Shown piece by piece: positions 23,583 through 49,675 of a DNA stretch of 64,000 bases; position 1 is the stretch's first letter, and every line of letters begins with the position of its first letter. Location of the stretch: NCBI RefSeq assembly GCF_018977255.1, contig NW_024704749.1, positions 9,734,001 through 9,798,000 of the forward strand, in the 5' to 3' direction. The notes beneath the pieces are model-generated. The model was not told where the DNA came from, made no database searches, and saw only the letters and a program-made list of their open reading frames with translations. The DNA is from Callorhinchus milii. Its lineage: Eukaryota. A program made the position numbers and the translations under genes.

Positions 23583-24753
23583 AAATTGACAAGCAACAGA
23601 CAAGGTGAGTTCCTGTTGACAAAGGTGTTGCAATTTTGTAAATTCCTCTGGTTTGAGCTTTAATAACCTGCTTAAGTATAGCTGAGTGCAAAGCAAGGTG
23701 TCAGGGGCCTTGGGACATTCTCCCAATGTGAATGATGCTATATAAATGTAAATCTGTATTGTAAAGAGGGCTACCACTTTCAACCTCACCCAGCCTTCCT
23801 GCTCTTGAGCCCATACAGTATGTGCTGATTTCCTATAGATACAAACAAGCCCAGAGTAGCCTGGAACAAACAGGCTTTCATTTCACTGTTTCAGGACAAA
23901 GGATTGTATACAATAGTTTTACTCAAGACAAAATATACACAACAAAATGGTAAGAAATAAGTAAACAAAATAAAAGAGAATATAGGGCAGATACAAGCCA
24001 GTATATGTTTTTCTCTACATTACACTGACACAGAGGCAAAATCAATATCACTGACCCTAACAAAACTTTCAATGTTTTACTTCACTTTTTAATTTGGCCG
24101 CCAACAATTTAAACTCTTTGAATTGTGCATGGACAGTGCAAATAAACTCTGTGACTTTCCCTTACTTAAGGCTGAATCTGTCTGTTCCGCATTTCTCCTA
24201 CTGCATTGTTTCCCTAAATTCCTCCTGTCTTCTGAGTCACTTTTGTAAAACAATTCATTTCACCCTATTTTTCTTGATTAAGTGTTGTCATTTCTTAAGA
24301 ATTTATTTTAAAAAATAGATCTTAAAGTTGGTTTGATATCCACAAAAAAAAATTTAGATCACAAGAAATTCCAAATCGGAAAAGTCTTTTAAAGTGTTTC
24401 TTGTGGCAGATTTTGTGGTGGTAAGGAGTTGTATAGACCTTCTTTAATGACTGAGTCATAGAAACTGAATATTCAAAACTAGGCAATTGCAGCAATTTTT
24501 TGCTATGCAAATATCCATGGAAAAATGCTAATAGCTATTAAAAAATGTTCACTATTGACAGCTTTAAAAATGCTCCATAGTATTATTTGCTTAACATGTG
24601 CAATATTAAATGCAAATTATTTCTTATTTCAGGAACAGAAAATTGAGGATCTAATAAGATTGTTTTCTGCTGAAGAGTGATTTGTTTCTCTGGTGAATAA
24701 AACTGTTTTGATGATTCTAATATGTTGTATTTTAGTGCAGCAGAAACCAACAT

Positions 24754-27700
24754 TTAAGAAAATCTGTAGCCAATTAGAAAACCTGAAATTATACCAAAAA
24801 TTATACAAACCACATGAAGAAACCACATTCCTTCAGTTCTACGTGTTGCAGAGAAGCTCCCTGGCTGTACAGTTGTTAAACCAAATTGTCTTATACAGTT
24901 ATTACATAATTTGTACGAGTAGTTAAATTCCAAGTTCTGCACAAAGTCAGAATTATTTTTTAGCAATGCTTTATACAGTTCATCTTCTGCATCTTCTCCC
25001 TTATTCATTACTAGTTGAAGCATGGCTTTATTTTGTTGAATTTCTACATTATGAGTGACAATTTCGGACTCTTCAGATTTAGTGATAACATTTGTATCTC
25101 GTAAATGCAACAGGATAGGTTGAATTGTTTTGAGACAACAAATTATTTCCTTTTTGTGTCTATGAACAAAGTCTACACATCTTTTCAACTTCTTAAACAT
25201 ATCTGAAAGAAAAGCACAATGGTTAGAGAACTGTAAATTATATTGTTTATAATGACTGCTGCTGTTTTAAAAGGATAAAAAGAAGCGTTTTAAACTAGTT
25301 CCAGATACCCATATGTGTCAAAGGTAACATATTATAATAATCTTTGCATTTGATATCAAGCCTTACCCATTCATCAAGATGTCTTAATGCACTTTACACA
25401 ATTTTTTTTGCAAAGTGCGGTGAATCTGTATTGGAAGGAAATATGGCAGCCAATTTGTACACAGCATTGCATTCTAATGAAATAGAATGAACAGAAAATA
25501 CAGATTTCTTTCCCCAAACTATTATTTTCTTTAAATGGTTATGCATGTTTATTTTATATCTGAGTTTAGGTACATTAGCACTGACCTGGTCGTAACAATA
25601 TTTCCCACAACACATTGAGCTTGCTTCTTTCAGTCAAACACAGCTTAATGCTATATTTCGACTCCTGGATATAAACCTCATGGAATGGTTGCTGTTGTTT
25701 ATACCTGAAGTAGCTGAATTTTATATCCTATAATAACAAGAATTTGAGAGAGTATAATGCACAGGAACATGTGTTCAATGAAGGTACAGTCGGTGTAGCA
25801 ATAACATGGCAATTATCTGTAGAAAACCGATAAACTGACTTTACAATGACAATTGTTTTAATAAAATAATGAAAATAATTATTTCCTTATAGTTTTGTAT
25901 TTGAATCAAGATTTTTTTTAATTGTTTCAAGGATCTATTCATTTTGAAGAATCTATCAATAGTAAATAAAAACTTATCACAATAAATTCTGATCTGTCAA
26001 TACGTTATATGCCTGAGTGACCAATTTTATTTGGAGGATTGTTGACCCAAGACGCTTACCAGTGGTTTTATAGCTACATTTGAAAAGGATGTCAGCCTAT
26101 ACTTCTTGCCATAGTAAACTGATGTTATTTGTGGAGGCTTTTGAATTTTCAGGGACCTTATTTCTTTTTCCTGCAAGTCAACTGCCTGAAAAGAGTTAGA
26201 AAAAGATAACTTTTGTTTCCTTATATGATTATATTTTAAAGCAAAATACAAAAAAAACACCACAATAAGTAATCTGCACCTAAATAGTTCTCAGATGCTC
26301 TATTCTAATTATCACTGACACTGACAGAAAAGCAACATTCATATTAATTAATTACATATTAATTAGATTCACATTCATATTCATTATTGGTCTGGCAAGA
26401 ACCACTGAAATCAGGGAGAATTAGGTTGGAGGGGATAGCAATGGTAGGGAGTGGTAAAACTTAGGGTTTGAAGATCTTGGTCTTTCTGTTGGGTTATTGG
26501 AAGCCGGTAGAGGCTGGCGAGGGTGCGTATGAAGTGTGCAAAAATTCCTGCTTATTTTTAGATGGATAACCGAAAGTGATTATTAATTATTTCTATTAGT
26601 TTGACAACTATAAACATTAAGGTTTTGTAGCAAAATCCACAAATATTTTCAAGTACAGTACAACGTCTCATTGTTACTGAAGTTTCATTTAAATGCACAA
26701 GCTATGTATTAACTTTGAAATATTTAACTTTCCATAGTTAAATCACACCTATCACTCCGCCTCGCCCCCTCCTTAGTCTCCTTCAAGTCCCGCCTCAAAA
26801 CCCTCCTCTTCGACCATGCCACCAGCCACCCCACCCTTTCCCCTCCCCTCCCTTCTCCCCCCCTGACCCCAGCTCGGGTCTGAAATGCTGTACACTGTCC
26901 AGTGCCTTGGGACATTCTCCTGATGTGAAAGACGCTATATAAATGTAATCTTATTGTTGTTGTTAAAAAATAATATAAAAATTGAATATTTTCAGTTACC
27001 TGTATTAATGAGCCATCATTTGGTAACACATAGACATGAAGAATTGAACAATCAGCTCGAAATGTTTGATATATCATTATGACAGCATGAATAGCCACCT
27101 GATGGACCTGACCAAGGATGACACCCATCAAGGTCAACGGTTGATTTCTTTGCACGACATGAGATAAATGGATTTCTGATGGATTTTCCAATACTAAGGT
27201 ATCATCTCTGAGGCACACAATACAATATCTCGCAGAATGTATTGCTTCCCCTGCACCTAAGAATATTCAAGTTTTATCAATTGCATCAATAAGGTATATT
27301 ACACCACATTCACAGTAAAATAAGTCACTTCACTTTGGAGCCTGAGGCTGCACCAGTACATATCAGGTGTATGGATGGCAATTAAGGCTCTTAAAGATTG
27401 TAATGTATCAAGGCCAGAAATGTAGTGCAATGCTTAATAATTGACTTCCCTAATAGAACTATTACTACTTGAAATATTTACATCCCATAATCAAGGTAAG
27501 GCTATCAAACTGGATTATAATTTATACAATTAATAGTCACAGGAAAGTGCAACCTGATCAGATACTTAATATCTGAATTCAAAGCTTTGAAATTTTCTGG
27601 GCTCATGCAACAATAGCAAGTTAGTTCTTTGATCAAACATGCATTATAAGGCATTGGGTGGTTGTGGCACTCTTTTGGAAAAGCAGCAAAGCAAAAATAA

Positions 27701-28890
27701 CAAATGGATAATCTTTGCTTTAATATAGTGCTTATAATGCTAAAACATTTCAAATTGCTTCACTGAGATTTGCTGTCAAGTGCAGTAATTGTTGGCAAAC
27801 GTGGCAGCCAATGTGCATACAGCATAATAATAGGCAAAATTTGGAAAACACCATAAAAGACCAAACAAAGCCTTTAGAAAGTCGTACTTCCTCTCATCAA
27901 CTGATTGTAATGCCCTTCTGGCTTAGTTAGTAACTCTTGTCTCTAGGTGATGAGGCTCTTGGTTCAAGCCCCCCGTCGAAAGCTCATGGATCTAGATTGA
28001 CACTACAGCGGTGCATGTGTGGGGGGTGGGGAGCACTGTATTTTTGAAGATAGTACCCGTTGCATCAATGGTTAAACTAAGCTCTGCCTGTTCAGGTGGT
28101 TATTAAAGATCCCATAACACTATTGTAAAATAATGTCCTGCCCAACATTCTTCCATTTAAATTAGTCATTCACTTCATGACTGTGGGACTCGAGGCAAGA
28201 CTACTGCGTTTTCCTACAAATAGTCATGATTTTGATAGCAATTCCCTGTGAAGCACTGGAGACATTTTTACCTTTTACTAATGTCAAACTAACGAAGTAA
28301 TATACAGCATGAGAAAACAGACCACCGCATGTAATAAACAATCAGAGAAATATTAAACATATACAACTTTACAAGATACCTGATTCACAAATGAAATGAG
28401 GAAGATGAACAGCAGCAATATCACCATAACTAACACGAATGTTGAACAATGGTCCTCCGATTATCCAACATTCTCTTTGCACATCAGAAATATAGTCATC
28501 CCAGGAGTTATACTCGTAAAAGATTCTAGCATTGGATTTCGATTCCCATCTCAGTCCTGTTTCAGCACATTCATAATTGCCTTTCTCTGGTAAGGTAATA
28601 CTTTCAAAGAATATTAAAAATGTTAATATGGGCACTGATTTTAAGTAAATAGAATCAAAATTCATACACAATACTTCTTATGATATTTGCAATTCCTGCC
28701 ATATTTTGTCCCATTTACAACAACTTGCATTTACATAGTGCTCTTCAAAAAGGTAACATCTCAGAGTATCGGTTACAAACTACAATGAATGGAGCTAAGA
28801 TTGCACAAATTTTACTTTCAGAACTTACCAGAATTTCCCATTTGCATCTTCTGGAATAGTCGGCTTAACAATGATCCACTTTAGTTTATC
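24754..28890 (-). CDS. FIIND#2-CARD-hydrophobic tail module of gene B
   Basis: GNYECAETGLRW...GGPLFNI...VHLPHFIC; LHVYVLPND; KPPQI; LWEILLRP. CARD DFVHRHKKEII...LYKALLKNNSDFVQNL. Tail MWFLHVVCIIFGIISGFLIGYRFS*. Exon sizes 62/221/257/126/142 parallel gene A (62/215/254/120/142). Confidence 0.9.
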
Positions 28891-31800
28891 CTGGAAACGA
28901 TGAAAATAATGTATGAAAGAATTCCAGCGTTAACAATGTATAAAGTTGAAAGTTTAAACACGGTGTAATTGTGTCACCTTTCTAATCTTGGGTATTCTAC
29001 AGGGACAGTGTTCCTTTTCAAAGTAACAGACTACATCTGTAATGCCTCTGCACACTGCTGTTGGAAATAGATACAATACAGTAAGCAATCAGACTATTCC
29101 CCCAAGAAAGATGCGCCTCATTCTGCTTCAACACATTAGCTGGATACATAGTGACCTTGGCTGAAGACGAGGAGTTCAAGAATCTTGCCTTTAATGGGGA
29201 TGCAAATGAGCAGTGTACTGTGGCAATAGCAGATGTAAGATATCATCCCCTCAATAAAAAGGGTCAAGGCAACAGTCAACAAGGAGCTGAAGTACCTAAA
29301 AACAATGGTGAAAGTCTCCAACGACGACAATATTGGTTGCCCGACATGCAAAGAAGCATTTAGCACAATCAGAGCCATTGAAAGAAATGGAAGAAGCAGC
29401 TAAGTATCTGGATAAGATACAACCACTAACTGTCCCTAACTGCAATATAAGAAAAACAGTGAAGGCTGCTCTTTTAAAGCAACAAATATTAAGGGTTTAC
29501 ATAATGAAATATCTTTCATGCACTGCTAAAGCAAAATAGTAAAATGTTACTGAATGAATTACCAGGAGCTTCAAGAAACTGCATTTGTACACAGATTTCA
29601 GGTCCCAGCGTAGTGCACTGCTGACCGGTTTTCACCGCTGAAATAAAGTAAAAGACATTTCACTAAAAAAATCAGAGTTGTGATAAGAGAAAGAAAAAAC
29701 CTGGAAATACAGTTGAGTTTGTAATGGTATTATATAATAATAATAAATCTTGCATTTGATATATTCTTCTAACTGCAAAACGTTAGCAGTTCCAATCTAG
29801 TCCAAGACTAAATGAGATCTACAAACACACTATATAGATGTATATCGTTTCTTTAGGACCGAGACACCACTAACCAGAGAGGATTGATAAATCCTTTATC
29901 CTGTTACACACTGCAAGGGACATCGCATAACAGCTTCTGCAGCTACTGATGCTCCCCTCCTTACAAAATCTGTCTACATTTTTCTTCAATGTGTGGACCC
30001 TGTTCGCACGAAGTATCACGTAGGAGCCTTTATTAATTACGAAGTGACCCAGACTAACAGGCCAGGGTGATTTTGTAATAAAGGAAGTGACCTAGACTTG
30101 TTAGTGTTACCTGAATACGAGGGTGAAGATTTCAAATTTTCTGTTTGTACCGCAATATCTGAGGCCACAATTCCCTGCTTTTGAAGAAGTAATTGATCTG
30201 AAATACAAAAGTAATAATAACTATGAATAACACAGTGCCAAATCATTAAGAGCTCATTCTTGCACTTTCTGGCTTTTTATATTTTTATATTTTAATAGCT
30301 ACTGCCTTAAATTAAGTGGTTGAACAAAAATAAATAAATATACAAGATATTTACCTAAATCAATAAAAGATTGTATATTGTCTGTTTCTGTAGCAGAATC
30401 AAGCAGAAATGCCCTGAATTCCTCTGGTGTATATTTACCTGAAAGATAAAAGCAACATCAATTATAAAGTACGTTGAAAAAGCATTTCTATCACCATCAA
30501 ACAGAGAAAACAATAAAGTAGAGTGGATCAATTGGTAGATCTCTCACCTCTGAGTCAATTCTCACAATTATGGGATTCAAGCCCCACATCATGACATAGA
30601 CAAAGTCTAAATTGAGATTCTAGTGCAGTGCTGGGGATGTATTGCATTGTTGGAAGTCCTGTCCTTTAGATGAGAAGTTGAACCAAGGCCCCAACTGTCT
30701 ATTCAAGTGGATGTTAAAGATCCCAATTTCCAACAGAAAGAGGTGGGCTGGGTTGCAAAGGAGCTAAGGGAAATGAATTAATGGCTTTATCGGTAATTAA
30801 AGATGGCTTTATCGGCGATGATAACTTATGAGATGGTGAGGCCCTGGTAATCACCAGATCAAGGAGGTGACCCTGGAAACACATCCCTCCTCCACCTTGC
30901 TAGAAAGGCATAAAGTAAATGGCTGATCAAAATGAATATATACAATATTTATTTAAATCAGCAAAATATTGTGTATATGTTTCTGTAGTGGTATCAGACA
31001 GAAATGCCCTTGGGGTTTTTTTTTACCTGAAATATAAAGTCAACACCGATTATAAACCACCCTTACTGGCAACTTGTTCCAGTCACTAATTACCTGCTGA
31101 TGATGTTTAGCACACCACATGAGCTATTAGTGTGATGCTTGTCTCCTTAAAGGACTATCCTGCACTCTGCTTTTACAGAGTTTTGACACAATCTATATAG
31201 GCCTCTAAGCATTTAAAATACTAATATACAGGCTTACATTAATGAAAAAGATTTTAAATGTACCTGGGTAAGGGGCTGAATAATGTAAAAATGTGACATT
31301 TAGTACTGACAATACACTGATGAGATTTTTAGACAAGTCTTTCAGGCCGACAAATTATTTTCAATAACAGCTAGAAGATAATTTGTTGCTGGTGCAGAAC
31401 AATTGCTGTGTTTATCTACATAACATTATACAGGATTTCTGTGTTTTGGTGTGGGAGGGGGGCAGAGTCTGAGTGAGGGGGAGCTCTGTAAAGAACGGAG
31501 TGCAGTCAGAGGGGTGGAAAGGGAGAAAGGAGACTGGAAGGAATGCTCGGGAACTCTGCTCTGGAAACTGGTAGAGACTCAAGACCTTTCGAACTGTAGC
31601 TGTGAAAAGAGCCGAAACAACATATTGACTTGTAACAGTCATTCTCTTTCTTAATAGCACTTGCATCAGCGAAGCGTGGTTAAATCTACAATCTTTAATT
31701 GCTCCGAGATGCTACCCGCATGAAGCAGACTATATTATATATATATACAGCAAGTTGTTGCTGTATCTCTGTGGGTAACTGGACTCTGTTAATTACAATT

Positions 31801-34800
31801 ACAACAACATCTGAATTAGACTGTCGCTGCGATTTCTTTTTTAAGAAGATTCTCAATCCTGTAGCATTAATATTATCCATGCAGGTGCCTGAGCTGAGCA
31901 AGACAGTTGGATACAACTCGTCCATTCTCAGGGGACAGAATTTGTGACACATTCATGTACAGATAGTAAATTACATCCCAATTTCCAATACCCCTAAATA
32001 GTTCTTGGACTTGAAGCAAATTAAGAGACCAGCGTAGTCACACATTTCAACATAAATGTACACAACATTTACCTAAAGCAGTGTGAAAAGATTCTATGCT
32101 GTCCATTTCTGTAGTAGAATCTAACAGGAGTGTTCTATATTCCTCCAGAGTTGCTTTATCTAAAATATAAAAAAACATCAGTTACAAAGCATACTGAAAA
32201 AGTATGAGTTTCAATCTCTCAAACCAATTCCATTGTTGCTAAATCAGTTGTAGTTTGTGTGTAGAGGAGCTGGGGGGAACGGCAAGGTGGGTATTGGAGA
32301 AATTCTTCTCATATCACTGCTGAAACAGATATAGATTTAATGAATAATTTTACTTAGTTGCGAAGTTGGAAATTTTAATCTTTCTGTTTCTTTACCCATT
32401 TTTTTTCCCAAGAGCTTGATTATCTGAAATGTAAAGGAATACCATGAAGAGAACTGACGGTTCAATGACATTGAAACAAAACAATGTTAAGATAAAACAA
32501 AAGTTAAAACAAAATAGTTTGTATCCATATATAAGTGAGAAACAAGCATGACCCTTCTCATGGCGTATTGAATGAAAAAGTTTGAAATGTTAGGTGATTG
32601 AGAATGAAAATTTTAATCTTTCTACTCTTTCACCTATGTGTTCTCCGAGAACTTCATTATCTGAAATGTAAAGATACTGGCATTTAGGGATAATAACACA
32701 ACAACAACTTCCATTTATATAGCACCCTTCATGCGGGTTAGAGTCTCAGAGTGCTTAATAGAAGAGACGGAAGATGTTTTTCAGACCCTTAAACCTTTTG
32801 TTATCAATGTTGAATCATTCAGTCCATATATTTGGCCAATTATGTTGTTAAACATGAAGCATTATGTGAGCTACCGTTCAACAAATATTTAAGACTGTTA
32901 ATATTCCTTAATTATAATTATGGTGAACATATTTATAGAAATAACTTATTTTGGGAAATGCACATAAGAGGTAGGAAATAAGGTAGGAGACATTGGAAAA
33001 GGACGGAGGAGGTGGAGGGGAAGGCATTGATATCCTCCATCCAGTACCAACCCTCATAACAGTCTAATACTGGATCTGGACTCCCCCTCTCATCCAGAAC
33101 TTCCACAGTTCAACCATTTCTGAGGTCTGCCCACACCTCAACAAAGACCTATGATCTTAATAACCCCATTCATTGAGGTCCAGATTGTTTAAAAGACTCA
33201 TCAAGGTGTTAAAAAAGTGCCCTTTGTCTTTGAAACAATATCTCTGACTATCTTAGTTCTCAACACATTTGTATCAGAATGTTTAGAAGACGATGCCTTT
33301 TTTAAAAAAATTCCATGAAGTGGCTTGACAGCTTTTGATTAAAGAACATAAAATGTTAAGTTCAAGAATAAATAAATTATCTAATTGGATATTATTCAGT
33401 GTTTTTCAGTTTTAGATATGATGCTAAAAAAAGAATAGACGTGTGTACATGTAGACACTGAACAACTTTTACCTGAATCAGTTTGAAATGGAGTTTCTTC
33501 CGTTTGTGTACCTATATAATTGAACGGAGCTCTGCCTTCCCCAAAAGCTTGTTTGTCTGAAATACAAAGTCAACCCATTTAGGAAATATGACCTAATTGA
33601 GAGATCCTCATGTGAAAGATCACTGGTGTAAGCAATCAATGCGTGGTTATAATATTGAAATAGAACAAAATAGATATTTCTAAAAGAAAAAATAAACCTT
33701 TTTCTGAATCAAGATGTTGAGATTCTGTTGTCTCTGTCTGTATACCGATATCACATAACACGGTACCTTGATCTCCAAGAGTTTTTATAACTGAAATACA
33801 AAGGCAAAAATATTTTTAAATAATTGCACTAAAATACCAAATCTTACTTAAAATGTCATACGAAAAATCTTTGCTAAAGCCTTTTTTCTCTTGGGGGGAA
33901 AAGTCAAAGGACCCAAAGTTTATTTGCATTCCCCAAGCTCAAAGACCAATGCCAGAGGGGCAGAACAAGAATAAAAGTACAGCTCTTTTACAGCGTCTCA
34001 GGTCTATGCTTACATATCTATAATTTAGCTGGACATTTGCAGCTAACAGTAACAACTTCAGTCGGAATTCAATGGCCACTAAAACATACACTATAAAATG
34101 AATACTGAATACAAAAAATGAATACAAAAGAATTAATAAAATAAATTCAGGAATGAAAGAGAAGGCAAAATACATCTTCTGAACCTTTACCTTTCTGAAT
34201 AGATAGAAACTGCTCTTGAATGGAATCAGGAATGGTTACTGGTGCTTTTAAGAAAAATACAGATTTGTTAGTTCTATTATAAACATCCAACTTCTTTTTT
34301 TGTGAATTTGAAAATTACAAACTAAATAAAAATTCTGTTCCAGCTGTCTGATTGTGAAGAAAGACCAATGAAGAGGTGGTCTCATCAAGAACTTGATTTG
34401 CATTGCTGTATAGCAATGACTTGGACTTGAATAGATTTTTCCATGTTTCATGGACAAAGATTGCTTCAAATCAATGACATGGATCAATGAGCAGGAACGA
34501 AAGGAGGGGAATTTCTGGGCGCTGACCAAAGGCACGGTCAAATAAATAAGATTTCAGAGGGTTTTGAAGAAAGCAGACGCAAAGTGAAGGGATGAGTTCT
34601 GGAGAATGAGGGCACAGTGACTGAAAGCTTGGTCGCTGATAAACGATAATCATTGTGTTTGATATAGCAGCTCATCACATTGTTGTGGCTAGGGAATTGA
34701 GCAATAGTTCAGGAGTGAGATTTTTGGGGCAGGTAGAGTACAACTGTGAGGAGATTTGAAGATTCGGACAAGGATCATGCATGTACTGAAGGTGCAGAAA

Positions 34801-37800: not shown

Positions 37801-40800
37801 GCTTACAAATATGAAATGGTTGTTAAATTAGTCTTGGATCAATACCCACCATATTCCACTGACCTTAGGGCCAAATAAAAGATTCTAAGATTACTATGCC
37901 ACTCAATAAATGTAACATATAACATTATAGGATATACTCTGCTGCATCTGCCCCTTTCCTATAGTTTACCTGAATGCAATAGTAGTAAACTTCCAGATGC
38001 AACATTTTTTTTAATGTTACAGATATTAATGTTTTACATGAAGTGGGTTAGTTTCATAAGGTCATGTAGTTCTTTGTTTCTTCTTTCAGTGGATAATCTT
38101 CATGTTTTGGATCTCGATAGTTAGTCTTGTCAGACTATTAATTATAATCCTTCAATCCTTCAATAATCAAAGCACTTTATACGATTTTACTGAGAACTAG
38201 AATGACTACATTTGTAGGCGAACGCAGCAATTTGTTGTGCATAGCAACGTCCCACAAACAGCCAAGACCAATGAATAACCAATTTTAATTGGGGCTTGTT
38301 GACTAGAACATTGGGAGAAACTTCCTTCTCTATTCAACTGTGGATGGTGTGAGCAGTTCTGTAAATCCTGTGAAGCATTTTGAGACATCCTCCCAATAAA
38401 AAGCATTTTCAATATTGTTTTATTTACCTGAAAACAATAGTGGTAAACTTGTAGCTGTAAAAAAGAAAATTTAACGTTAAAGACCATCATTTGTTTCCTG
38501 AAGCAAGTTAGTTCCACAAGGACTAACAGTTCTGTTATTTCACTCAGTTTAACTGTGGATTGTGCTAAAGCTCTGTTTGACCCCATCCTCACCAAATAGA
38601 CAAGTAGACTGGGTTAATTGCCATGTTTTTATTTATATCATCTAACTCAGCAAAGACTGAATCTTAGCAAAGACTGAACCAAGATTGAATCTAGGACCTT
38701 TCGTTGATTGGCTCCAAACAGTGCATTCATTCACCCAGTAACTCCACAATATAGTTTAATATGTTCTATCTTCATTCTCGCTTTCAACCGCCTTAGGGTC
38801 CCTCTGGATTTTAACCTGACAACCTTCTTTCTGCTAAAGTATCAAAAGATTCTGGGGGGCATTATGTAATCATTTACTCCCTTTCCTGTTCTCTCTATTT
38901 AATCTACATTGTTGCAGACGTTGGAGTAGTTGTTTATAGAGAAGGATACATAAAGTAGAAACATGTTCTCTTCACAAACAATGGATTCCTCACCTCGTTG
39001 CGGTTCAAATTCATCTAGCATAAAAAAAGGAAAAAAAATTAGGTATAGCTGTGCAAAAGGCGTTTTATTTGGTTTAAATTATATTTCCAGCACAACCTTA
39101 CATTAGGGAGATCTCTTTCACAGTATGTCATTAACAAAGCCCACTTAAAATTTAGGGTGCAACATTGTAAAAGGTATTTCTTGCTTTATAGTATTGTGTG
39201 AGATCTTTCCGAATAAAAGTATGGTAAGTTTTATAACGTTCATAAATTTAATTACAAATAATCAGAGCAGCAAAGTTCCTCCTGCCTTACGTAAATGGAG
39301 TAAAACAATAAAAATAGATATTTTTCAGGTAAAATAAAAAACATTGGATTTCTGTTCAGTACACACATGTTGAAAAAGGGTATAAACTCTCTCTTCGGAG
39401 TAATACTTTAAGAACCACATAAACCTCAACACATTTCTGGCTTGACCTGGCGTTATAATACAATGCATATAGTAATTTTTCTACCATTTCTCTATGCATT
39501 TTTGTAAATACACAGTTCAAGTTGAACGCAAGCCAAAGGGAATGGTTACACTTCTCATTGTTTATGGATTGAGAGAACAAACTAAAAAAAATGAAACATA
39601 CCTTCAGAAGAATGGTAAGGTTGATGAGGTATTGGCTGTATATTAGATGACATACTTCTAATTTCCTGTAAAGCTTCCACATCTGAAATTTTTAAAATAC
39701 TGTAGTAAGCAAATGTGCAGTATAAGCTAGAACTAAAAGATTCTATTTTCTGAAAGTGTAGAAATGTAAGCAGATATAGTTCCAGAATCACCATAGGTCT
39801 CAAATGGAAAAATCGAATAAAAAAACAATATATAGCATATATTACCAGAAAAGGTTCTATGCACATTGCTATCTGCAAAAAAANTCAGAAATAATTTTTA
39901 GAAATGTTATTTTTTAAATAGCGTGAACAATTGCATATCAAAAGGATTCTGCTCTGCAATATACAGGCTGCAAAAGTGCTAACTAAGTTTTTTGCCTCAA
40001 TTTTTACTAAGGAGGAGACAGGTAATTTATTTGATTATATTGGAAGGGGAACTCGAGAGTGTTGCAGAGATAAGTTGTAACATCATTCGCATCACTACCA
40101 GCATAGTTGCCCAAAAGCTGTACATAGGTAAATAAGTCTCAGGGACCAGATAAATTGCATCCCAGGATCCTTAAGGATCTAATGGAAGAAGTTGCAGGAA
40201 CTCTGGCACAAATCTTCCAGAAATCACTGAATACCGGAGAGGTGCCTGGAGACTGGAGAAAGGCAGATGTTACTCCTATTCTTTTTTAAAAACAAAAGGC
40301 AGCAAGAATGACCCCAAAAACTACAATCCAGTGCGTTTGACCATTGTGATGAAGCTATGCAGACCCTTATTGATGATACGATCATGAAGCATCTGGACAG
40401 AAACAAAATCATAAAAGATAGCCAATATGGGTTCATGAGGGGGAGATCTTGCCAATCTAATTCACTGTTTTTTTTTGACAGTGAGCTTGATAAGGTTAAG
40501 ACAGTGGATGTTGTATATTTAGATTTCAGTGAACTCAATATTCAGAACTTGAATGTACAATCTGATAAAGACACAAGAGTTCTGAGCGGCATGCACAATG
40601 ACAACGGCACATGAAATCTGATTGGGTGTCTTATATTGTCCATTGCAATTGGATTTCATAGATGGAAATCTTATACATCATAATCTCTAAATTACCAGAT
40701 TTTATTTTTGCAAATTAGTGAAATAACTGTTCAAAATAATTTCTGCTTATTTGTAGCAAGCAAAAGTAGTAATTACCTGAAACGGAAGAACGAATTCCTG

Positions 40801-43800
40801 CAAAATATGAATAAATTATAAATATTAGCATTCTCAATCTAATTTATGTCTCAGACATGGACAATATATTGATCAGAGTATTTGAGATGTTATTTTTCCC
40901 CTTGCTTGTGTATCTTGTAATTATCAACTGGTGTACCACATACTGTTGACAATTTTCTGCAATAATAAAATGTTGCTAAAAGGTCAGAGCTTGGGAATGT
41001 GCTTGTCAGTTTGTTTTTGACAAAAAACAAATGAAACAAAAAAGGAAATAAAATTGTCAAGCTAACACTACCTGAGGGGCTTGAGGGGATAGCACGGAGA
41101 AAGGGCAGTAGGCTGAGGAAGCATTCAAAGAATAAGGAAGACTGCTTGGTCAGGCGATCAGAACATGGGTCAGCAGACGTAGCATGCTGCTGCCTAAAAG
41201 CTTTTAAAGCAGTGTGGCCTCTTTAGCTATTTTTCATGTTGGCATTTAACCAACAGTATTAGGAGTATGTGGAATCAGGAAGAATGAGACATACATACAA
41301 CAAACATCCACCCAGCCCTAACCCGTAAGATGGTTTTGTCTTCAAATTTAAGATGACACAAAAATGCGGAAGATGCTTGAATTCAGTTTTAATTTGGAGG
41401 CCGGTTCTCTTTAAAGATTGTGGAAAACCATCTTCCAGATTAAGAATGTATTTCAGTTTTTCACAATTCTGGACCATCCTAAATTTTAAGTATGACAGAA
41501 TAAGATTATTTAGTACAGCATATCCGGCCAATAGTATTTGAAATATACCTGATTTTGAGTGTAAAAAATCATCCGTTACATTGTTACGCTCCATGCTCCT
41601 AGCTGCTTCCACTTCTGAAATATTTAACAAGTACAATACTGATAAATTTAAGAATATAAAGATGACAACACTGTACTAACATTCAATCCATAAAGTATGT
41701 CAAATTCAAGTAATTTAGAATCCTCTCCAAAATCTGCAATTGTACCCACATGGTAACACTTCCAATTAAATTACTAAAATGCTGTGCAAAAATATACCTG
41801 CTCCAGTTGTCCCATCACTTAAGACTCACAATCTGGAGAACAGAAAATCAAATCCTAGGTGGCAGCCATCCACCATTGCGCTCAATATGACCCTGTAAAG
41901 CAGTTAGCAATAGAAGGGATATAAACACTAAATCTGGAGGATCTCAAACATACACACCGGGCTTTGGCATTGTCTTTTCATCCTCATCATCCTCAACGAT
42001 GGCATCTACAGTACAAAGGCAAAAACAAAATCTCCAAGATTAGGTGCCTTATAGGATCATCATCATTATGCCCTTGACATATTTCAGGAATAAAATCAGA
42101 TTGACAAATACAAAAAACTAGCCTGATTTGACAACTTACTGAAATTAGGTAGGGTACACATTCAATGAAGCTAAGTCTGCCTGAAGAACTGCCAATGTTG
42201 TACATTGGATAAACACTGAGGCCGAATGTGCAATCTTCACACATATTTTCATTGCTAGCGAGTTCTATATTAATCAACTCTATTTTTAATCATGAAATGA
42301 ATGCATCTTTTTCTCCACAGGTTACATTCAACAATCAAGGTGAAATAAAGTGCAAGCCAAAGCCCTAATGGGTACGGTGATCCTAGCTGGACAAGTATCG
42401 AGAAGCTTGCTAGACAATGTTCTCAAGGCAAGCAATGCCGTTTTTACTGCTGGTTAAATTCCAGTAGTATCCCATTGCACACTCTGGGCGCCCATTATGG
42501 TTTACATATTTAACCTATACGTACCTTTGGTACAAACTGAGTCGCTGCTTTCTGATGATGAAAGTTCCACTTCATCATTATCCACTTCATCATTATCTTT
42601 CCAATATAAATGAACATCATCAAAATAAGATTAATTAGTTCAACTTTCCAAACCCATTCACGTTGTTCTGCAACTTTTCTAACTGAAAACATAGGAAGGT
42701 TTGTTTTCTTTTAGGTTAATAAAATAAGTTTGGGATAAGAAGCACTTCAAGGCATACCTACTAAAGCAGCCGCAGCAGAAACTTTACCATCTTCTGGGAA
42801 AACAAAAAACAATATTCATTTAAGCTATTGATCAGTAATTGTCATCGCCCCCCCCAGGGTCTATGTAATAATAATCCTTGCATTTGATATAGTGCCTTAT
42901 CATGTCTTCGAGACGTCTAAAACTGCTTCATAGATATTCTGTAAAGTGAAGTGACTGTATATTTTATGGACGAAATACAGCAGCCAATTGCCATGAAGAT
43001 TTGTATGAGTAAGGTTGTTATTTTTTCAATACTCACTGGATCTTAACAAGATATTCCATAAAGCATCATTCTTTTTTCTCTTTGTCAGTTTTAACTCAAA
43101 TAAATCATTTTCTTTTTTAATAAATACTTCATAAAATGGCTGTTTTAAATCCATATCAATGTAATGGAATTTCATTTCCTGTAATAAATATAAAATTATT
43201 ATTTTTCTTAAAATGCAACAGTATAATGAACTAAAAATAAACACAATTTCCACAAATACAAACAGAAGTACTTCTCCATTTCCTACTTGATTTACTATCA
43301 AAACTTCTCTCTTTCGCTGCAATATATAAATTCTTCCAATATGGCAAGTAAGCGTGGTTTGAATAATCAATGTTCATTTGCTTTGTGTATTCAGAAAACA
43401 TAGGTCCCTCCAGTAACAGTCTGTTCCTTTATAAATGTTGCTTTATAACTGTTGACTTAAATTTGTATTTTTTATATAATGTGTCTCATTCAATGGTTTA
43501 ACATACAGGTGACATATTAAATAAGATTTCAGTTAGATGAAAAGTACAACAGGAGTGAATTTATCATCTAATTATGACTATAAAATAAGATGAATTTGTC
43601 CCATTTTTTGTTCCAAAGCTTTAATATTAATTAATAATAGATTCGTTCTTAATAATATGGCATTAACACTTTCTGAAGTTAACTGAATTTTAGCAGTACA
43701 TACATATTTCTGCTTACTTCTGGTATGATCTGAATATCTGAAGAGCTAATTAGAGAATACTTTCTACCAAAGTAGAGGGACCTTGTGGGTGAGGGACGTT

Positions 43801-46800
43801 TAATCATAACCGATTCGGATTCCTGCAAATGAACTGCCTGCAAAATAGTGGAGAAGCACAACTTTGTTTTGCAATGCACTCTCATATCATAAGGTAGTCA
43901 CAGAATAAAAATTGAATTAAAACAAAATTACCTGCATTATTGAAAGGTCATTTGGTATAACATAGACATGAAGAATTACAGCAGCTGGGTTTGCAGTTTG
44001 ATAAATCATTGTCAGACTATAAAATGAAAACCACGAGTTTCTGTCAACAATAACTCCCATAAGCGAAAAAGTTGGCATTTGTAATTCAGCATGAGCTTGA
44101 TGAATTTCTGATGGCTTCAGTACACTATAGGAGCTTTCTTTAACATGGAAGATGGCAAAGGTATAATCTATTTTTCTATCTGTGCCTGCAGAAGAAAAAA
44201 AACATGTTTATGCATAGTTGTAGTTTTCTATAAACGAAACACGTCATAGGAGAGAACCCTGAAAATTTCAACCACAGGAAAAAAAATTAATTGATGTTTC
44301 CCTGGAGGATTGTTCGTTATGTATCAACCTTCGGAACAAAAAAGGCCATACAAGCATTTTAAAGTCATTATCTGAAATATTGTCTCTGTGATTTTATCCT
44401 CTCAAAATGTCAGCAAATGTTGGCACCCAATTCTCTGTGGATGGAAATGTGAAATGTTTTCCTTTGGGTGGGAACAATGTGTGTAAACATACTTAGTTTA
44501 TTATTTATTATTATTATTAATGTATCAGGCTATTTTTCAACAAGGAACAGTGACAGTTTTTCTGTAATATCAAACAATACAATTGAACTATGTATACACT
44601 ATCAACTTAATGGGAACTACTTCCCTAAAAAACATTGTAATACCAATTGGAACAATAATTTAAACACAGTATAATGCATGTGTACAGTCAAGCGCAGAAA
44701 TAAAGAAAATATTTAAAGATACCTTTTAAACAAATAAAATGAGGAAGATGAATAGCTGTAATAACACTGTCTTCTGCCAAAATATTAAACAATGGACCTG
44801 AAAATTCTGCTTTCTGTATCACAATAATAGGAGCATATTCACGCCACGAGCAATATCTGTAATCAATAGTTGTTGATTTTGTGATTTCCCATCTTAGTCC
44901 AGTTACAGCACATTCATAATTGCCTTCATCTGGGAGGGAAATCCTGCACAGAAATGTGAATATGAGAATGTAATATAGAACAAAAAGACATAAAATGATT
45001 GGGTTTCTAATCATACTTTACCTAAAAAATAACTCATGATCAGAGACATCAGGCTCTATCACTGTCCAGTTTGTTTTTTCCTACAGAGGAACAAAGAAAG
45101 GGAATATATCAGATTTTGGAGTAAATCAGATTGTTCCTTAGTATCCTATTTTTACTACATGAAACACATTTCTAGCCAATTACATTTAAATCAAAACTGT
45201 TACCTCTTCATTCTCATACATGTTAGAAATAGTCATCTTTTGGTGACTAAACTCACAAAGTATCCTCATCATTCCTGTGCGAAAAGATAAATAGGAACAG
45301 GTTTATTTTTTCTCTCTACTTTTTCATAAGAATTATTTATTACAATTTGTAGAATTTTGCAGCTACAGTATTTGGATTCACCAAGACTCATCAGAATCGA
45401 GTACAGTGGGAGTTACTGCAGTAAGTGCACTACAGTTACATTAATAGCATAACTGGATTATATGACACATTACGCAATTTGGTCAACTCCCAAGTAGTCC
45501 AATGTTACAACAGTTTCCCTACTATGTCAGCATGACAGATTTAGTAATCCAAGTGGTGTAATTAACAAAGCTGTGAGTTTGTTTAGAAACATGATGACAT
45601 ACATCCATTTGTCCACATTAACCAGATATAGACACATCATCTACTGTAATTCCAGTATCATATCTATTTGAACTCATATAATTCACTCATTGTGTATTTG
45701 TTCAATATACATTTAGAAATAGCTAATCTGGCTATAAAGGAAAAGGATGCCAGTTCCTGTAAGAGACTTTTCCAGGTGAAATTATATAACATTCTTCTTT
45801 CTGCGCTTTACAATAATACTTTCAACTATAATAATAATCCTTGCATTTGATATAGCGCCATATCACATTTTCGAGACGTCTCAAAGTGCTTCACAGAATA
45901 TACTGTAAAGTGAATTGACTGCGTTTTTAATTTACGTTATATGGGAACACTCCTTCCAAGGCAAGGTTTCCCGATAAATTATCAAAAAAGATTGTTTAAA
46001 TAAACAGATATTTAAAAAAACATAGAAACTTGAGAAAAAGGTTGTTACTTCTAATTTATATATTTTTAAAAAAAGTGGCATTAGCTATTTAAAACAATGA
46101 AGGCAGATAACGTACTTCTGTGCCTCTCAGTAGTTTCTGAAGTCACAGGTTGAAATTTAGCAGGCGGGCTCCAATCTAAAATATATTTAAAAAGATATAT
46201 TTTAATATTATCACAATTAAATATCAGAAAATAACAATAAGAATGTAGTATTAAAATTCTACAAATAGTGTTACCTGCTGATGTACCTTTGGGGAATTCG
46301 CCTGCAACTGAAACAAAAAAGATTGTGAAAATCTGTTCACAATTAACTAGTGTTAAAATACACAAATATTTGAAATTTTGACACGTTAAAAATACCTGTG
46401 ATTTTAGCTTAAGACTATCGAGTCCACTCAAAGTCTTCCAAAAGAAAAGCCAAGAAAAGCAGCAAATCTGAAGATTGGGAGAGTTTTAGAAACCAGCAAA
46501 AAAAAACTAAAAAACTCATTAAGAGCGAGAAAAAGGAGTATGGGGGTAAGCTATCGAGGAACATTAAGTCTGATTGTAAAAGTTTTTACAAATATATTAA
46601 GAGGAATAGTCGAGTGAGGGTAAATGTAGGTCCACTTCAGTCAGAGACGGGAGAAGTTGTAATGGGGGATAAGGATATGGCAGTGTCCCTAAATGGGTAC
46701 TTTGCATCTGTCGTCACCCTAGAAGACAAAACAAGTCTGCCAACAATAGAGATGCACCAAGTGGATAAGGACAGGGAGCAACTTAGGGAAATTTTCACTC

Positions 46801-49574
46801 ATGGAGAATTGGTGCTCGGGAAACTGTTAACACTAAAAAGTGACAAATCCCCTGGTCCGGATGGCTTGCATCCCAGGGTTTTAAAAGAGGAGCTTATGAG
46901 ATAGTGGAGGCCTTATGTCTGATCTTCCAAAATTCCTTGGATTCTGGAACAGTCCCCATGGATTGGAAGATCGCAAATGTCACACCACTATTTAAAAAAG
47001 GTGGAAAAGGAAAGATAGGGAACTATAGGCCAGTTAGTCTCACATTAGTGATAGGAAAAATTCTAGAATCGTTGATTAAGGATGTGGTAGTGCGGTATTT
47101 AGGACACAATATAATTAGGCCAAGTCAACATGGCTTTACAAAAGGGAAGTCATTTTTGACAAATCTCATAGTTTTTTGAGGATATTTTGAGTAAACTTGA
47201 TAAGGGTGAATCAGTGGATGTAGTCTATTTGGACTTCCAGAAGGCATTCAATAAGGTGCCGCATAAAAGGTTAGTCCAAAAGATAAGGGCCCATGGAATT
47301 GGGGGGAAGCATATTAACGTGTATTGGGGAATAGTTAATGGGTAGGAAACAAAGAGTAGGGATAAACGGGTCCTTTTCAGATTGGAGGGATGTGACTAGT
47401 GGAGTACCACAAGGCCTCAGCTATTTACCATCTACATCAACGATCTAGATGAGGACATCGAAGTTAAGATATCTAAATTCGCGGATGACACAAAACTAGG
47501 AGGAAGTGTCAACACAGAGGATGACATTAAAAAAATGCAGCGAGACATAGATAGGTTAGGTGATTGGGCAGGTAGGTGGCAGATGAAGTATAATGTAGGG
47601 AAGTGCGAAGTCATCCACCTGGGTAGCAAAAACAGTAGATCGGGTTATTTTTTAGAAGGGGAGAGATTGGAATGTGTTAGCGTCCAGAGGGACTTGGGTG
47701 TCCTTGTACACCAATCACAGAAAGTTAGTCTGCAGGTGCAGCAGCAATTAGGAAGGCGAACGGTATGTTAGCATTCATTATGAAAGGATTAGAGTATAAG
47801 AGTAGGGAAGTCTTGCTGCAACTGTATAGGGCCCTGGTGAGACCACACCTGGAATACTGTGTGCAGTTTTGGTCTCCTTATTTAAGGAAGGATGTACTTG
47901 CCTTGGAGGGGGTGCAGCATAGATTTACTGGGTTAGTACCAGGGATGAAGGGGATGAGTTACGAGGATAGGCTGACCAATTTGGGCCTTTCTTCTCTAGA
48001 ATATAGAATTAGAGGGGATCATCAAAGAGCATAATCATCAAAGGGTATGGCTTACTCCTGCTCCTACATGTCATGTTATGTTATGAAATTTCAACTGCTG
48101 CTTAACTATGGCAATCATTGAAGTGTTTAACTGAAATGACACCATTTCCATTTCCGTTAAAGAACAAACACAAAATTCTGTGCAATCTGCAAACCTCATA
48201 CCCGGAAATCGAATTACTGAGGTGATTCGCTTTCCCAGACAGCAATATCACATCCCGTGAACCTCAGAAACGTGTCGGCACGTCTAATGCGCGTCGAGTA
48301 TGCATTTACTTTAAAAGCTGCCACAGAATCTAGTGCTACTTGTGCGACTGTAAGGTCCAATCCCATTAAGGGTGTAAAATATTAAAAGGCAAATTACTGG
48401 TATAGTCAATGACTCCAGATCCATCTGCACCTGCAAAGAGAGAAAAAAAAAGAGGAGCCTTTTATTTATTTATTTTTTTTAAAAAAAAAACAACATTTCG
48501 ATCCACGGCGCTTGTCCGAATAATAAGAACCACCGCCGCCGCCGCCACAAGACGCCTCTTGCCTCTCGATGTGGCGCTTTCCGCGCCGTCGAGACGTCTC
48601 GAAGGCGCTCCGCGGGCGGATCGTGCAACCAAATTATTGTGGGTTTTTTTTTCGGTCTTGAGGGACTATATGTGCAATAATAATAATAATGTGTGGTGGG
48701 GGTGGTGGTGGGTTGGGGGGTGGGGGGAGGAGGAGGAGGGGGGGGAGGAGGAGGAGGAGGGGGAGGAGGGGTGGGGGGGGGGGAGGAGGAGGAGGGGTGG
48801 GGAGGAGGGGGGGTGGGGGGAGGAGGAGGAGGGGGAGGAGGGGTGGGGGGAGGAGGAGGGAGGAGGGAGGAGGGGTGGGGGAGGAGGGGAGGGGGGGGGG
48901 AGGGAGGAGGAGGGGTGGGGGAGGGGGGAGGGTGGGGGAGGAGGGGGGTGGGGGGGAGGAGGGGTGGGGAGGGGGGGGTGGGGGGAGGAGGGGTGGGGAG
49001 GGGGGGGAGGGGGGTGGGGGAGGAGGGGGGGGGGGTGGGGGGGGAGGAGGAGGAGGGGTGGGGAGGGGGGGGTGGGGGGAGGAGGAGGAGGGGTGGGGAA
49101 GGGGGGGGGGGTGGGGGGAGGAGGAGGAGGGGTGGGGGGGGGGGGTGGGGGGAGGAGGAGGAGGGGTGGGGGGGGAGGAGGAGGAGGGAGGGGTGGGGGA
49201 GGAGGAGGAGGGGGGGGGGTGGGGGGAGGAGGAGGAGGGGGAGGGGGGGCTAGTTCTAGCCATCGAGAAGAGTCAATGGCGCTGCACGTACTCCTCTCCT
49301 GGTAAGTCACGATGGATTCCAACGCGAGACCACACTCCCCCACCGTCAGGTCGTCCTCCAGCGGCTGCTGGGCCGCCAGGAGCCTGAGCCGCTCGGGGCT
49401 GACGGGCTCGGGGTTGCTCGGGTCCGCGTTCAGCAACGCCGTCAGGTTCCGCTTCACGTCCTCGATGGTGTCGCCCAACTTCACCCCCACACGGAATTGC
49501 CTCCCGTCGACCCGCAGGACGTTTAAGTCGAAGGTCGCCTCGGCCCCGGCGTCGGCCATTTGCTGTGAGGCCAT
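24754..49574 (-). CDS. UBL - FIIND - micro-exon linker - FIIND - CARD - putative TM tail protein, about 1345 aa (gene B; NLRP1/CARD8-related)
   Basis: Exons 5'->3': 49574-49292 (UBL), 48430-48398, 46307-46275, 46175-46116, 45274-45204. FIIND#1: 45080-45022, 44943-44723, 44185-43932, 43837-43718, 43178-43037. Then 22 phase-1/1 micro-exons from 42793 to 29563, and 29057-28978. FIIND#2: 28890-28829, 28600-28380, 27256-27000, 26185-26060, 25727-25586. CARD plus tail: 25202-24754. The total is 4038 nt with no internal stop. The domain calls are firm. Whether this is one transcript, and the exact linker exon set, are less certain. Confidence 0.7.
29563..42793 (-). CDS. Array of symmetric phase-1 micro-exons (21-93 nt) forming the linker of gene B
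   Basis: 42793-42758, 42596-42525, 41614-41549, 40797-40777, 39872-39846, 39682-39602, 39014-38994, 38454-38428, 37367-37287, 36937-36854, 36587-36522, 36370-36284, 35930-35880, 35334-35263, 34940-34872, 34244-34191, 33790-33698, 33556-33473, 32159-32073, 30438-30355, 30197-30111 and 29637-29563. Each has AG/GT ends, a length divisible by 3 and an open frame. Confidence 0.65.
39975..40530 (+). mobile_element. CR1 LINE internal RT-region fragment, degraded
   Basis: KSQGPDKLHPRILK..., GEVPGDWRKADVTPI, SQYGFMRGRSCQSN, VDVVYLDFS. Confidence 0.85.
43037..45080 (-). CDS. FIIND#1 (ZU5-UPA) module of gene B
   Basis: GNYECAVTGLRW...GPLFNI...IHLPHFIC; IFHVKE...HAELQMPTF|SLMGVI...LHVYVIPND; LWNILLRS. 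Exon sizes 59/221/254/120/142. Confidence 0.92.
46435..48085 (+). mobile_element. 5'-truncated CR1 LINE (ORF2 reverse transcriptase, frameshifted), antisense in an intron of gene B
   Basis: KSPGPDGLHPRVLKE, WKIANVTPLFKKG, NYRPVSLT, QHGFTKGKS, YLDFQKAF, KFADDTKLG, LVRPHLEYCVQFWSP. It ends in ...CTCCTGCTCCTA...(TATGT)n. Confidence 0.95.
48692..49249. repeat. G-rich low-complexity tract (GGA/GGGGTGGGGG units) in intron 1 of gene B
   Basis: About 550 bp made almost entirely of G and A with periodic T. Confidence 0.95.
49292..49574 (-). CDS. Ubiquitin-like domain exon (first coding exon of gene B)
   Basis: MASQQMADAGAEATFDLNVLRVDGRQFRVGVKLGDTIEDVKRNL...PERLRLLAAQQPLEDDLTVGECGLALESIVTYQER follows the ubiquitin pattern (DTIExVK, QRLxxxGxxLEDxxTLxxYxI). 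There is no C-terminal diglycine. The phase-1 donor A|GTACGT is at 49291, and the exon lies in a CpG island. Confidence 0.85.
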
Positions 49575-49675
49575 CTCTCTCTCTCTCTCTCCCTCCCTCT
49601 CCCTCACTGGGGGGTGTGTGTGTGTGTACGAAGCTCCTCTCCCGCCCTCCCGCCCCCCGCGTGTCGGTTCAAATC

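Follow-up and report, generated by a model that had tools for sequence, protein, structure and literature searches.

What kind of protein is encoded by the exons that lie between positions 49574 and 24754 on the minus strand of a 64,000-nucleotide stretch of the chimaera genome, and is it a single protein at all? The stretch (contig NW_024704749.1, positions 9,734,001 to 9,798,000; the whole of it is called the window) comes from Callorhinchus milii, the species of all named records that match parts of our gene model identically. Positions are those of the window, and the exons and coding features of the gene are on the minus strand. An exon chain was assembled from the listed splice candidates, and Pfam was run exon by exon. 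The chain consists of 41 exons (E1 to E41) with AG/GT borders at 40 of 40 introns; it encodes 1376 amino acids and its sole stop codon is terminal. The product is ordered as follows: a ubiquitin-like domain (UBL), a first FIIND (FIIND#1), an acidic linker of 510 amino acids, a second FIIND (FIIND#2), a CARD and a hydrophobic tail. An earlier note on this DNA had proposed a phase-consistent chain of about 1345 amino acids that unites a UBL, two ZU5-UPA modules, a CARD and a tail in one gene. Pfam, RNA joints and an open reading frame in a ray support this proposal, and the three junctions named there (49292>48430, 43037>42793 and 29563>29057) are all present in the gene model.

The ray protein, XP_069792258.1 (P0007) of Narcine bancroftii, was the sole match among 8000 scored candidates, which were longer proteins. 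It has the UBL, two FIINDs, the CARD and the same tail in one open reading frame and is collinear with the model. Identity is 69% for ZU5#1, 66% for UPA#1, 61% for ZU5#2, 63% for UPA#2, 56% for the CARD and 52% for the tail; the UBL is the least conserved folded part (39%), and the linker (32%) has conserved islands, one of which covers the E14-E16 joints. In an unnamed relative (P0009) one open reading frame extends from the UBL to ZU5#2, with whole exon blocks skipped, and the 3' half is represented in two catshark models. A tree of 28 FIIND rows, selected out of 147, put FIIND#1 and FIIND#2 in separate clades across chimaera and ray (100/100 each). The lines to chimaeras and rays parted about 400 million years ago. 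The gene is real and conserved, a variant of the CARD8/NLRP1 kind and apparently undescribed. NLRP1 and CARD8 are commonly viewed as soluble tripwires with a single FIIND; here a UBL-headed, predicted tail-anchored protein with two FIINDs, the second of them disabled, has been kept since before the chimaera/ray split. A match to an rve integrase together with repeats, found in the first 215 residues of the ray model and in the first part of catshark P0006, has no counterpart in the window model and was set aside as likely annotation junk.

E1 (49292..49574) contains the start codon and the UBL (Pfam PF00240, 30.5 bits at a cut-off of 25.4), and its sequence has a single match in the genome. 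The UBL is modelled as a beta-grasp fold which Foldseek aligns to ubiquitin with a root mean square deviation (rmsd) of about 1-2 Å. With this fold and no C-terminal GG it qualifies as a non-conjugated UBL. Of the hydrophobic patch of ubiquitin it retains only a part, with Val and Leu at the columns of L8 and I44; the V70 column lies beyond the alignment and would be Gln by extension. In the relatives the I44-region column is Leu, Phe or Met. A conserved spacer, E2-E4 (46116..48430; 48430-48398, 46307-46275 and 46175-46116), is identical to the RefSeq models P0001 and P0002 and is kept in the ray.

FIIND#1 is encoded by E5-E10 (43037..45274; 45274-45204, 45080-45022, 44943-44723, 44185-43932, 43837-43718, 43178-43037) and FIIND#2 by E35-E40 (25586..29057; 29057-28978, 28890-28829, 28600-28380, 27256-27000, 26185-26060, 25727-25586), the latter supported by Pfam and by RNA pieces. 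Both cassettes have the six-exon layout of a neighbouring CARD8-like gene, and both match Pfam FIIND and UPA-FIIND (over E7-E10 and E37-E40); in a scan of P0002 the scores for FIIND#1 were 119.7 and 82.9 bits, respectively. An AlphaFold model of UBL-FIIND#1, made with a 65-row alignment, reached a predicted local distance difference test score (pLDDT) of 79, the acidic tail being of low confidence. Its FIIND#1 superposes on the rat NLRP1 FIIND (7crw) with an rmsd of 2.3 Å over 264 columns. Modelling, which the earlier note had suggested as a check, thus predicts a ubiquitin-like fold followed by an NLRP1-type FIIND.

The CARD (24931..25176) lies within E41 (25202-24754), scores 35.9 bits with Pfam PF00619 and has the CARD8 CARD as its best sequence match in the PDB (E value 7e-4). 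It is followed by the hydrophobic tail (24754..24828), a predicted tail anchor with a GxxxGxxxG motif that ends at the stop codon. The motif is present in four of four species, and the Kyte-Doolittle value of the best 19-mer is 2.40 in the chimaera, 1.77 in the ray and 1.55 in each of the two catsharks. Among 155 stored proteins, only three named relatives have a hydropathy above 1.4 in their last 45 residues. A single-sequence fold of catshark P0005 (FIIND#2-CARD-tail) gave a pLDDT of 33.

One gene or two

RefSeq divides the locus. XP_042193315.1 (P0002) is identical to our model over 502 residues and then ends within intron 15, after E15, with a terminal exon at 40381..40392; a second, unnamed model starts in E31 and agrees with the gene model over 342 residues. 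Two adjacent genes could thus exist, one for UBL-FIIND-acidic tail and one for linker-pseudoFIIND-CARD-tail, which would have been joined by prediction error or by rare read-through. The end points of the two models speak for this, as do the half-length models P0018 and P0005.

The RNA evidence comes from contigs of putative RNA runs (among them X1 to X5), whose RNA status is guessed. A first matching of contigs was dominated by matches to short interspersed nuclear elements (SINEs), and joints absent there carry no meaning. The eight joints from E11 to E19, with GT-AG ends, were all found in X4; seven of them were found in X3 and four in X2. The joint 40777>39872, which crosses the RefSeq end, is present in X3 and X4 and appears as a loose end in X2. 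Loose contig ends, which match where E10 stops and where E16 and E20 begin, point to the joints E10>E11, E15>E16 and E19>E20. The contigs bypass the RefSeq terminal exon and reach E20-E21; because putative RNA contigs cross the end of E15, the RefSeq split is contradicted. In the 3' half, the joint E37>E38 is present in a contig of X3, and a contig of X1 links E38 to the CARD exon with exactly 268 nucleotides in between, which is the length of E39 and E40 together.

Of the three junctions that the earlier note had marked for an RNA check, 43037>42793 is favoured by the loose end at E10. Support for 29563>29057 (E34>E35) is depth arithmetic only: the bin depth of 2.14 equals 16.7 x 85/664, as expected for a contig with E34 and E35. 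The UBL junction 49292>48430 is given by RefSeq models and by an identical junction peptide in three relatives, not by RNA. X1, X3 and X5 had no depth in the bins that cover FIIND#1, and X7 gave no match; such gaps prove nothing.

The promoter region also bears on the question. A CpG-rich region over exon 1 (48501..50000, no strand assigned; GC content 0.63-0.72) is the likely promoter. It has 22-40 CpG per 500 nucleotides at 48.5-50 kb, compared to at most 13 elsewhere in the gene; its GC richness is owed partly to a C-rich low-complexity tract in intron 1. Within 29.5-48 kb there is no CpG island (at most 10 CpG per 500 nucleotides up to 48000). The earlier note had stated that no CpG promoter lies between the two FIINDs, and this is what we found, the sole CpG-rich region being that over E1.

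Several points weigh against a single gene. No RNA contig directly shows the joints E1-E10 or E21-E34, and the latter gap in particular leaves room for two genes. The central joints all come from three runs (X2, X3, X4) of a single study whose RNA status is guessed, and the halves do exist as separate models (RefSeq P0002; P0008, P0018, P0005). Yet two genes are difficult to reconcile with contigs that pass the RefSeq terminal exon, with the lack of an internal CpG island and with two relatives (P0007 and P0009) which hold both halves within a single open reading frame. Moreover, E21/22, E23/24 and E25/26 are copies of one exon pair, and their splice sites are all intact. We therefore regard the chimaera chain as one gene with high confidence and consider two adjacent genes to be quite improbable. 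The split annotation of the gene is corrected accordingly. Short isoforms may arise through an internal start or an early end.

Decayed reverse-transcriptase fragments that resemble long interspersed nuclear elements (LINEs) lie in intron 2 (46.4-48.1 kb) and intron 15 (40.2-40.7 kb); the first has a weak Pfam RVT_1 match, the second has none. The RefSeq terminal exon sits inside the fragment in intron 15. A minisatellite was seen 5' of exon 1 (49730-50330), and the C-rich tract in intron 1 covers 48700-49250. At the other end of the gene, contigs of X1, X2 and X3 terminate at 24624-24631, a weak hint only of a likely short 3' untranslated region (24624..24753); AATAAA is absent in 24700-24615.

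The acidic linker and its exons

The linker is encoded by E11-E34 (29563..42793), 24 symmetric microexons of 21-93 nucleotides, with RNA joints from E10 to E20. All 24 are of phase 1-1, with lengths divisible by three. Under an identical splice filter the gene strand had 62 candidates, of which 22 were symmetric and open, versus 2 of 15 for the opposite strand. The linker has a net charge of -56 across the 533 residues that were counted. The three duplicated exon pairs (36937-34872) encode a repeat of about 50 residues which starts with C-K-H/Y and contains a predicted amphipathic stretch. Two further copies were seen. One, at 32423-32396, is a 28-nucleotide duplicate of microexon E30; it is one base too long, lies within an A run and may reflect an assembly error. 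The other, at about 31025-30950, is a decayed E32 that lacks a donor site. Both were excluded as exons, as the frame is broken or the donor is missing. As far as can be judged from sequence, the two copies show that exon duplication in the linker is ongoing.

Three motifs of the LC8/DYNLL type are found in E28 (33732..33752, aligned with the ray motif D-K-G-T-Q-T-E), E29 (33498..33518) and E33 (30139..30159). The pattern [TVI]Q[TV][DE] occurs three times in the chimaera where 0.14 are expected and three times in the ray where 0.16 are expected (p about 5e-4 each); the pattern was selected after the QT repeats had been noticed, so these p values are optimistic. The catshark part has one such motif. 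One ray site agrees at every position with the consensus published for LC8/DYNLL motifs (PMC3078936), and the start of the linker has a pLDDT under 50 in the AlphaFold model. The linker motifs hence have the sequence characteristics of LC8/DYNLL clients in a predicted disordered region. This resembles multivalent clients such as ASCIZ and the KANK1 linker, where several [T/V/I]-Q-T-[D/E] motifs lie in acidic sequence of low complexity. Unlike in these proteins, the putative LC8-binding motifs are placed between two FIINDs.

In X3 a contig of 594 nucleotides shows a permuted exon order: the end of E12, E13-E19, 165 nucleotides (the length of E20 and E21 together), E11 and E12. A ring of E11-E21 (36854..42793) with a back-splice from 36854 to 42793 would have 564 nucleotides, and 594 = 564 + 30 is the length expected for a closed ring built of 31-letter words. 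The ring was seen in one run, with the presence of E20-E21 inside the contig deduced from length. A SINE-like repeat in intron 10 (42866..42950, upstream arm) is 81% identical over 86 nucleotides to an inverted copy in intron 21 (36608..36693, downstream arm). When introns 11-35 were tested for an inverted repeat against intron 10, intron 21 scored 94 and none of the 24 others more than 34; the duplex of the two repeats has -127.7 kcal/mol compared to a mean of -63.5 over 30 shuffles. A circular RNA of E11-E21 generated by back-splicing is likely; alternatively, the permuted contig may stem from a tandem duplication in the DNA of the X3 animal. If it is a circle, it also shows a transcript that extends into intron 21, 3.5 kb beyond the RefSeq stop. 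In the ring of 564 nucleotides one coding frame, with four Met codons, is free of stops, so that the ring could in principle undergo rolling translation. If E11-E21 were missing from a linear transcript, its frame would be kept.

Catalytic residues of the two FIINDs and possible functions

Self-cleavage of NLRP1 and CARD8 needs the F|S motif and a His and is assisted by a Glu (PMC3210808, PMC8081665); mutation of the His eliminates cleavage of both proteins (PMC8081665). We compared these positions in 149 aligned FIINDs (four redundant chimaera rows were removed and two model rows added). His, Phe and Ser are found together in 123 of them, and the helper Glu (CARD8 E279, NLRP1 E1195) in 130. 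In chimaera FIIND#2 (27132..27215) Cys1067 replaces the His, and Leu1093-Thr1094 replace Phe|Ser. Cys for His and Leu for Phe occur in four of four sequences, and the nucleophile column is Thr, Ala, Ser and Ser; the FIIND directly before the CARD thus nowhere has F|S, the four sequences reading L-T, L-A, L-S and L-S. By sequence FIIND#2 is a pseudo-FIIND, as the earlier note had called it, and it is under strong conservation.

FIIND#1 gives a different picture. In the chimaera it has His267 (44147-44145) and Phe293|Ser294 (44069-44064; together 44064..44147), which align to NLRP1 H1186 and F1212|S1213 and to CARD8. F|S is kept in four of four sequences. Of the four, just the chimaera sequence has the His; the ray and two unnamed relatives have Tyr there, and among the 149 FIINDs the combination of Tyr, Phe and Ser is confined to these three. 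The helper Glu column reads Leu, Gln and Gln in the three FIIND#1 rows printed, and Glu in FIIND#2. A cut of chimaera FIIND#1 would create the new N-terminus S-L-M-G, as in CARD8. The product of a cut at 293|294, however, would not be a compact UPA-CARD: about 1080 residues would be left, with an intact FIIND ahead of the CARD.

Because the His is Tyr in three relatives, a function shared by the lineage cannot be presumed to require canonical autoproteolysis, and the gene, by its predicted residues, is not a canonical NLRP1/CARD8 sensor. The earlier note had further inferred that the UBL couples the N-terminal fragment to the proteasome or baits pathogen ubiquitin-system enzymes, with activation by degradation as in NLRP1 and CARD8, and that the released fragment nucleates CARD signaling on an organelle. 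In this form neither idea is supported: the first is at odds with the substitution of the His in three of four FIIND#1 sequences and with Leu or Gln in place of the helper Glu, the second with the location of the CARD-adjacent UPA in the uncleavable FIIND#2. The retention of F|S in FIIND#1 could mean that cleavage still matters.

A possible interpretation, which we favour tentatively and by analogy, is that the protein is a brake on inflammasomes of the CARD8/NLRP1 type, tail-anchored and dimerised by LC8, whose uncleaved FIINDs hold loose UPA-CARD together with DPP8/9. The C-terminal tail would fix the protein to an organelle, leaving the remainder in the cytosol, and two chains would be paired by the glycine-zipper tail and by LC8 on the QT motifs. 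FIIND#2 would not cleave itself and FIIND#1 would do so poorly or in the chimaera only, so that intact ZU5-UPA modules would persist. These could occupy the 'full-length' seat on DPP8/9 in the manner of NLRP1-S1213A and hold stray UPA-CARD, derived for example from the adjoining CARD8-like gene. The UBL might govern how the brake or its cargo is turned over by the proteasome, so that firing would start at a lower threshold once the protein is lost. Skipping or back-splicing of the symmetric linker exons could alter linker length with the frame unchanged.

The precedent is uncleavable NLRP1-S1213A, which is described as occupying site A of DPP9, capturing UPA-CARD and reducing death dose-dependently (10.1101/2020.08.14.246132). 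According to the same source, a UPA that sits inside an intact FIIND is unable to self-oligomerise, and L1193 and L1194 belong to the DPP9 contact. In FIIND#2 the columns of L1193 and L1194 are occupied by hydrophobic residues and those of E1195 and E1322 by Glu, and the genome has two loci of the DPP8/9 family. The brake is preferred over the alternatives, two genes included, because of the S1213A precedent, the contact residues of FIIND#2, the DPP8/9 loci and the adjoining CARD8-like gene. If it exists, it would be a natural counterpart to engineered uncleavable NLRP1 and a dedicated regulator of the inflammasome pathway.

Several observations do not fit a brake well. FIIND#1 has no contact residue of the L1193 type, and a brake has no obvious need for two FIINDs or for a CARD conserved at 56%. 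Chimaera FIIND#1 holds His, Phe and Ser, and its F|S, kept in all four sequences versus drifting in FIIND#2, leaves autoproteolysis possible. In the chimaera no segment is more hydrophobic than the tail, but in the ray and the catsharks an internal UPA strand scores higher. Finally, the role as a brake would be one by analogy, all of its functional steps being inferred.

The same features of FIIND#1 are the starting point for a second interpretation, a degradation-triggered sensor. FIIND#1 would be cut at F293|S294, UBL-ZU5 would be degraded or attacked by a pathogen ubiquitin enzyme, and the freed UPA#1, tethered to the membrane via linker, FIIND#2 and CARD, would oligomerise and cluster the CARDs, with FIIND#2 as a built-in DPP8/9 restraint. 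Both conserved His residues and F|S are present in the chimaera, F|S is retained throughout, FIIND#1 is the best conserved part of the protein (66-69%), and other UBL-FIIND-CARD proteins have an intact site (P0012, P0020). Mammalian NLRP1 has been described as detecting pathogen E3 ligases through functional degradation (PMC7483925, 10.64898/2026.10.24.761588), which also counts for a sensor. The features of the UBL fit a decoy and a proteasome handle alike; Pfam scans of P0002 and of the ray protein revealed no UBA or STI1 cargo-binding domain. However, the change from His to Tyr in the ray and both unnamed relatives, and Leu or Gln at the E279/E1195 column in the three rows printed, argue against cleavage as a shared trait. 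UPA#1 ends about 810 residues ahead of the CARD, the CARD-adjacent UPA would remain masked by its own ZU5, and a constitutive proteasome handle would require an additional trigger. We consider the sensor doubtful; if true, it would be a new layout for functional degradation.

The fold allows a third interpretation, a membrane scaffold outside the inflammasomes. ZU5, UPA and CARD would form a closed, non-cleaving supramodule as in UNC5 and ankyrin, opened by a partner, which would signal from an organelle towards apoptosis or NF-kB/IRF in the manner of CARD19 and MAVS. The FIIND fold also matches the ZU5-UPA of UNC5b and ankyrin-B, and the cleavage residues were lost whereas the fold residues were retained. 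UNC5B and ankyrin are not known to self-cleave, and CARD19 and MAVS likewise combine a CARD with a membrane tail at the C-terminus. Yet both modules group with FIINDs of the NLRP1/CARD8 type by sequence, exon layout and tree, the best solved relative of the CARD is CARD8, and the gene lies tail to tail with a CARD8-like gene. We regard the scaffold as unlikely.

A comparison with known proteins reflects this mixture. As in human CARD8 (PDB 7jkq/7jn7), a FIIND is followed by a CARD and there is no NACHT-LRR; S-L-M-G after F|S in FIIND#1 and the best CARD match are further likenesses. Unlike CARD8, the protein has two FIINDs of which the CARD-adjacent one is disabled, a linker of 510 residues, a predicted membrane tail and, at the N-terminus, a folded UBL instead of a disordered region. 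With NLRP1 (human 6x6c, rat 7crw) it shares the FIIND fold, the S1213A form on DPP9 being the working model for FIIND#2, but Pfam scans of P0002 and P0007 revealed no PYD, NACHT or LRR in the exon chain or the ray protein. The RefSeq label 'NLRP1b-like' is due to the FIIND only. PIDD1, ankyrin-B and UNC5B likewise combine ZU5 and UPA folds with a subsequent death-fold domain, and structural alignments to their modules show about 10% identity. In contrast to the ZU5-ZU5-UPA-death domain order of PIDD1 and ankyrin, two complete ZU5-UPA units lie about 550 residues apart and the last domain is a CARD. CARD19 (BinCARD-2) and MAVS share the order of a CARD and a C-terminal membrane segment, the latter being a prediction here; neither is known to have a FIIND or a UBL. 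Both are absent among the 18 PDB matches of the CARD (E value up to 1).

Other UBL-FIIND proteins and neighbouring loci

UBL and FIIND occur together in 10 of the 150 representatives listed. Two belong to the chimaera/ray lineage; the eight others (P0012, P0020, P0059, P0077, P0136, P0152, P0052 and P0093) have one to three UBLs before a single FIIND, and none of them has a hydrophobic tail. Several of their UBLs end in RGG-like tails, some have intact cleavage sites, and their FIINDs belong to separate lineages. A single origin of all UBL-FIIND proteins was rejected, as they do not form one clade with FIIND#1 (approximately unbiased test, p 1e-4; membership was set by domain content, although the fast tree had been inspected before the test). 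Tandem FIINDs as such are not a special trait: seven other proteins of the 155 stored have two, some of which are probably fused models. Clusters found in the ESM Atlas were all of the CARD8-like kind, and none with the full architecture was among the three families displayed. One 'CARD8-like' cluster of 148 members has a score of 0.98 with P0012 and may represent the family of these UBL-FIIND proteins.

The earlier note had regarded the architecture as undescribed. Among the papers listed by literature searches, several of which showed the top 15-20 of many matches, none described the chimaera protein or UBL-FIIND fusions, supplements being outside their scope and subscription journals mostly uncovered, and the available parts of two comparative papers (PMC11258412, PMC12436146) do not mention 'ubiquitin' or 'ubiquitin-like'. 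In the databases, however, the architecture already exists as the unnamed automatic ray model XP_069792258.1. New here are the enriched LC8-type motifs, the likely SINE-flanked circular RNA of E11-E21 and the UBL-FIIND fusions in eight other proteins of separate lineages. Such natural fusions are ready test cases for whether FIIND sensors act as decoys for pathogen ubiquitin-system enzymes. A far-reaching proposal would combine these elements: the chimaera protein as the first membrane-anchored FIIND sensor with its own inhibitor, in which the self-cut UPA#1 is captured with the disabled FIIND#2 as captor on DPP8/9, the linker is stiffened by LC8 and tuned by splicing, and destruction of the UBL, a bait, sets off the CARD on an organelle. 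The protein would then exemplify a wider, undescribed vertebrate pattern of repeated fusion of UBL baits to FIINDs. We think that this proposal is improbable as a whole.

The CARD8-like gene (14360-23582, plus strand; promoter region near 10.2 kb) encodes P0010, a protein of 436 amino acids with a short N-terminus, a FIIND and a CARD. It has an intact His and F|S, is convergent with the double-FIIND gene on the other strand and ends 1171 nucleotides away; its product is a candidate partner of the double-FIIND protein. An intronless acylphosphatase gene (9546-9851, minus strand; Pfam 82.9 bits) lies head to head with it, and the two have a common CpG island. Exons at 53.8-59.4 kb resemble, as we presume, PXMP2 (minus strand) and POLE (plus strand) in head-to-head orientation; two open reading frames tested there had no Pfam match. 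A fourth FIIND gene is located at a different locus (G000:C11:17316500-17326400, L001). Judged by eye from its open reading frames, it has L|S at the cleavage site and an apparent terminal death domain.

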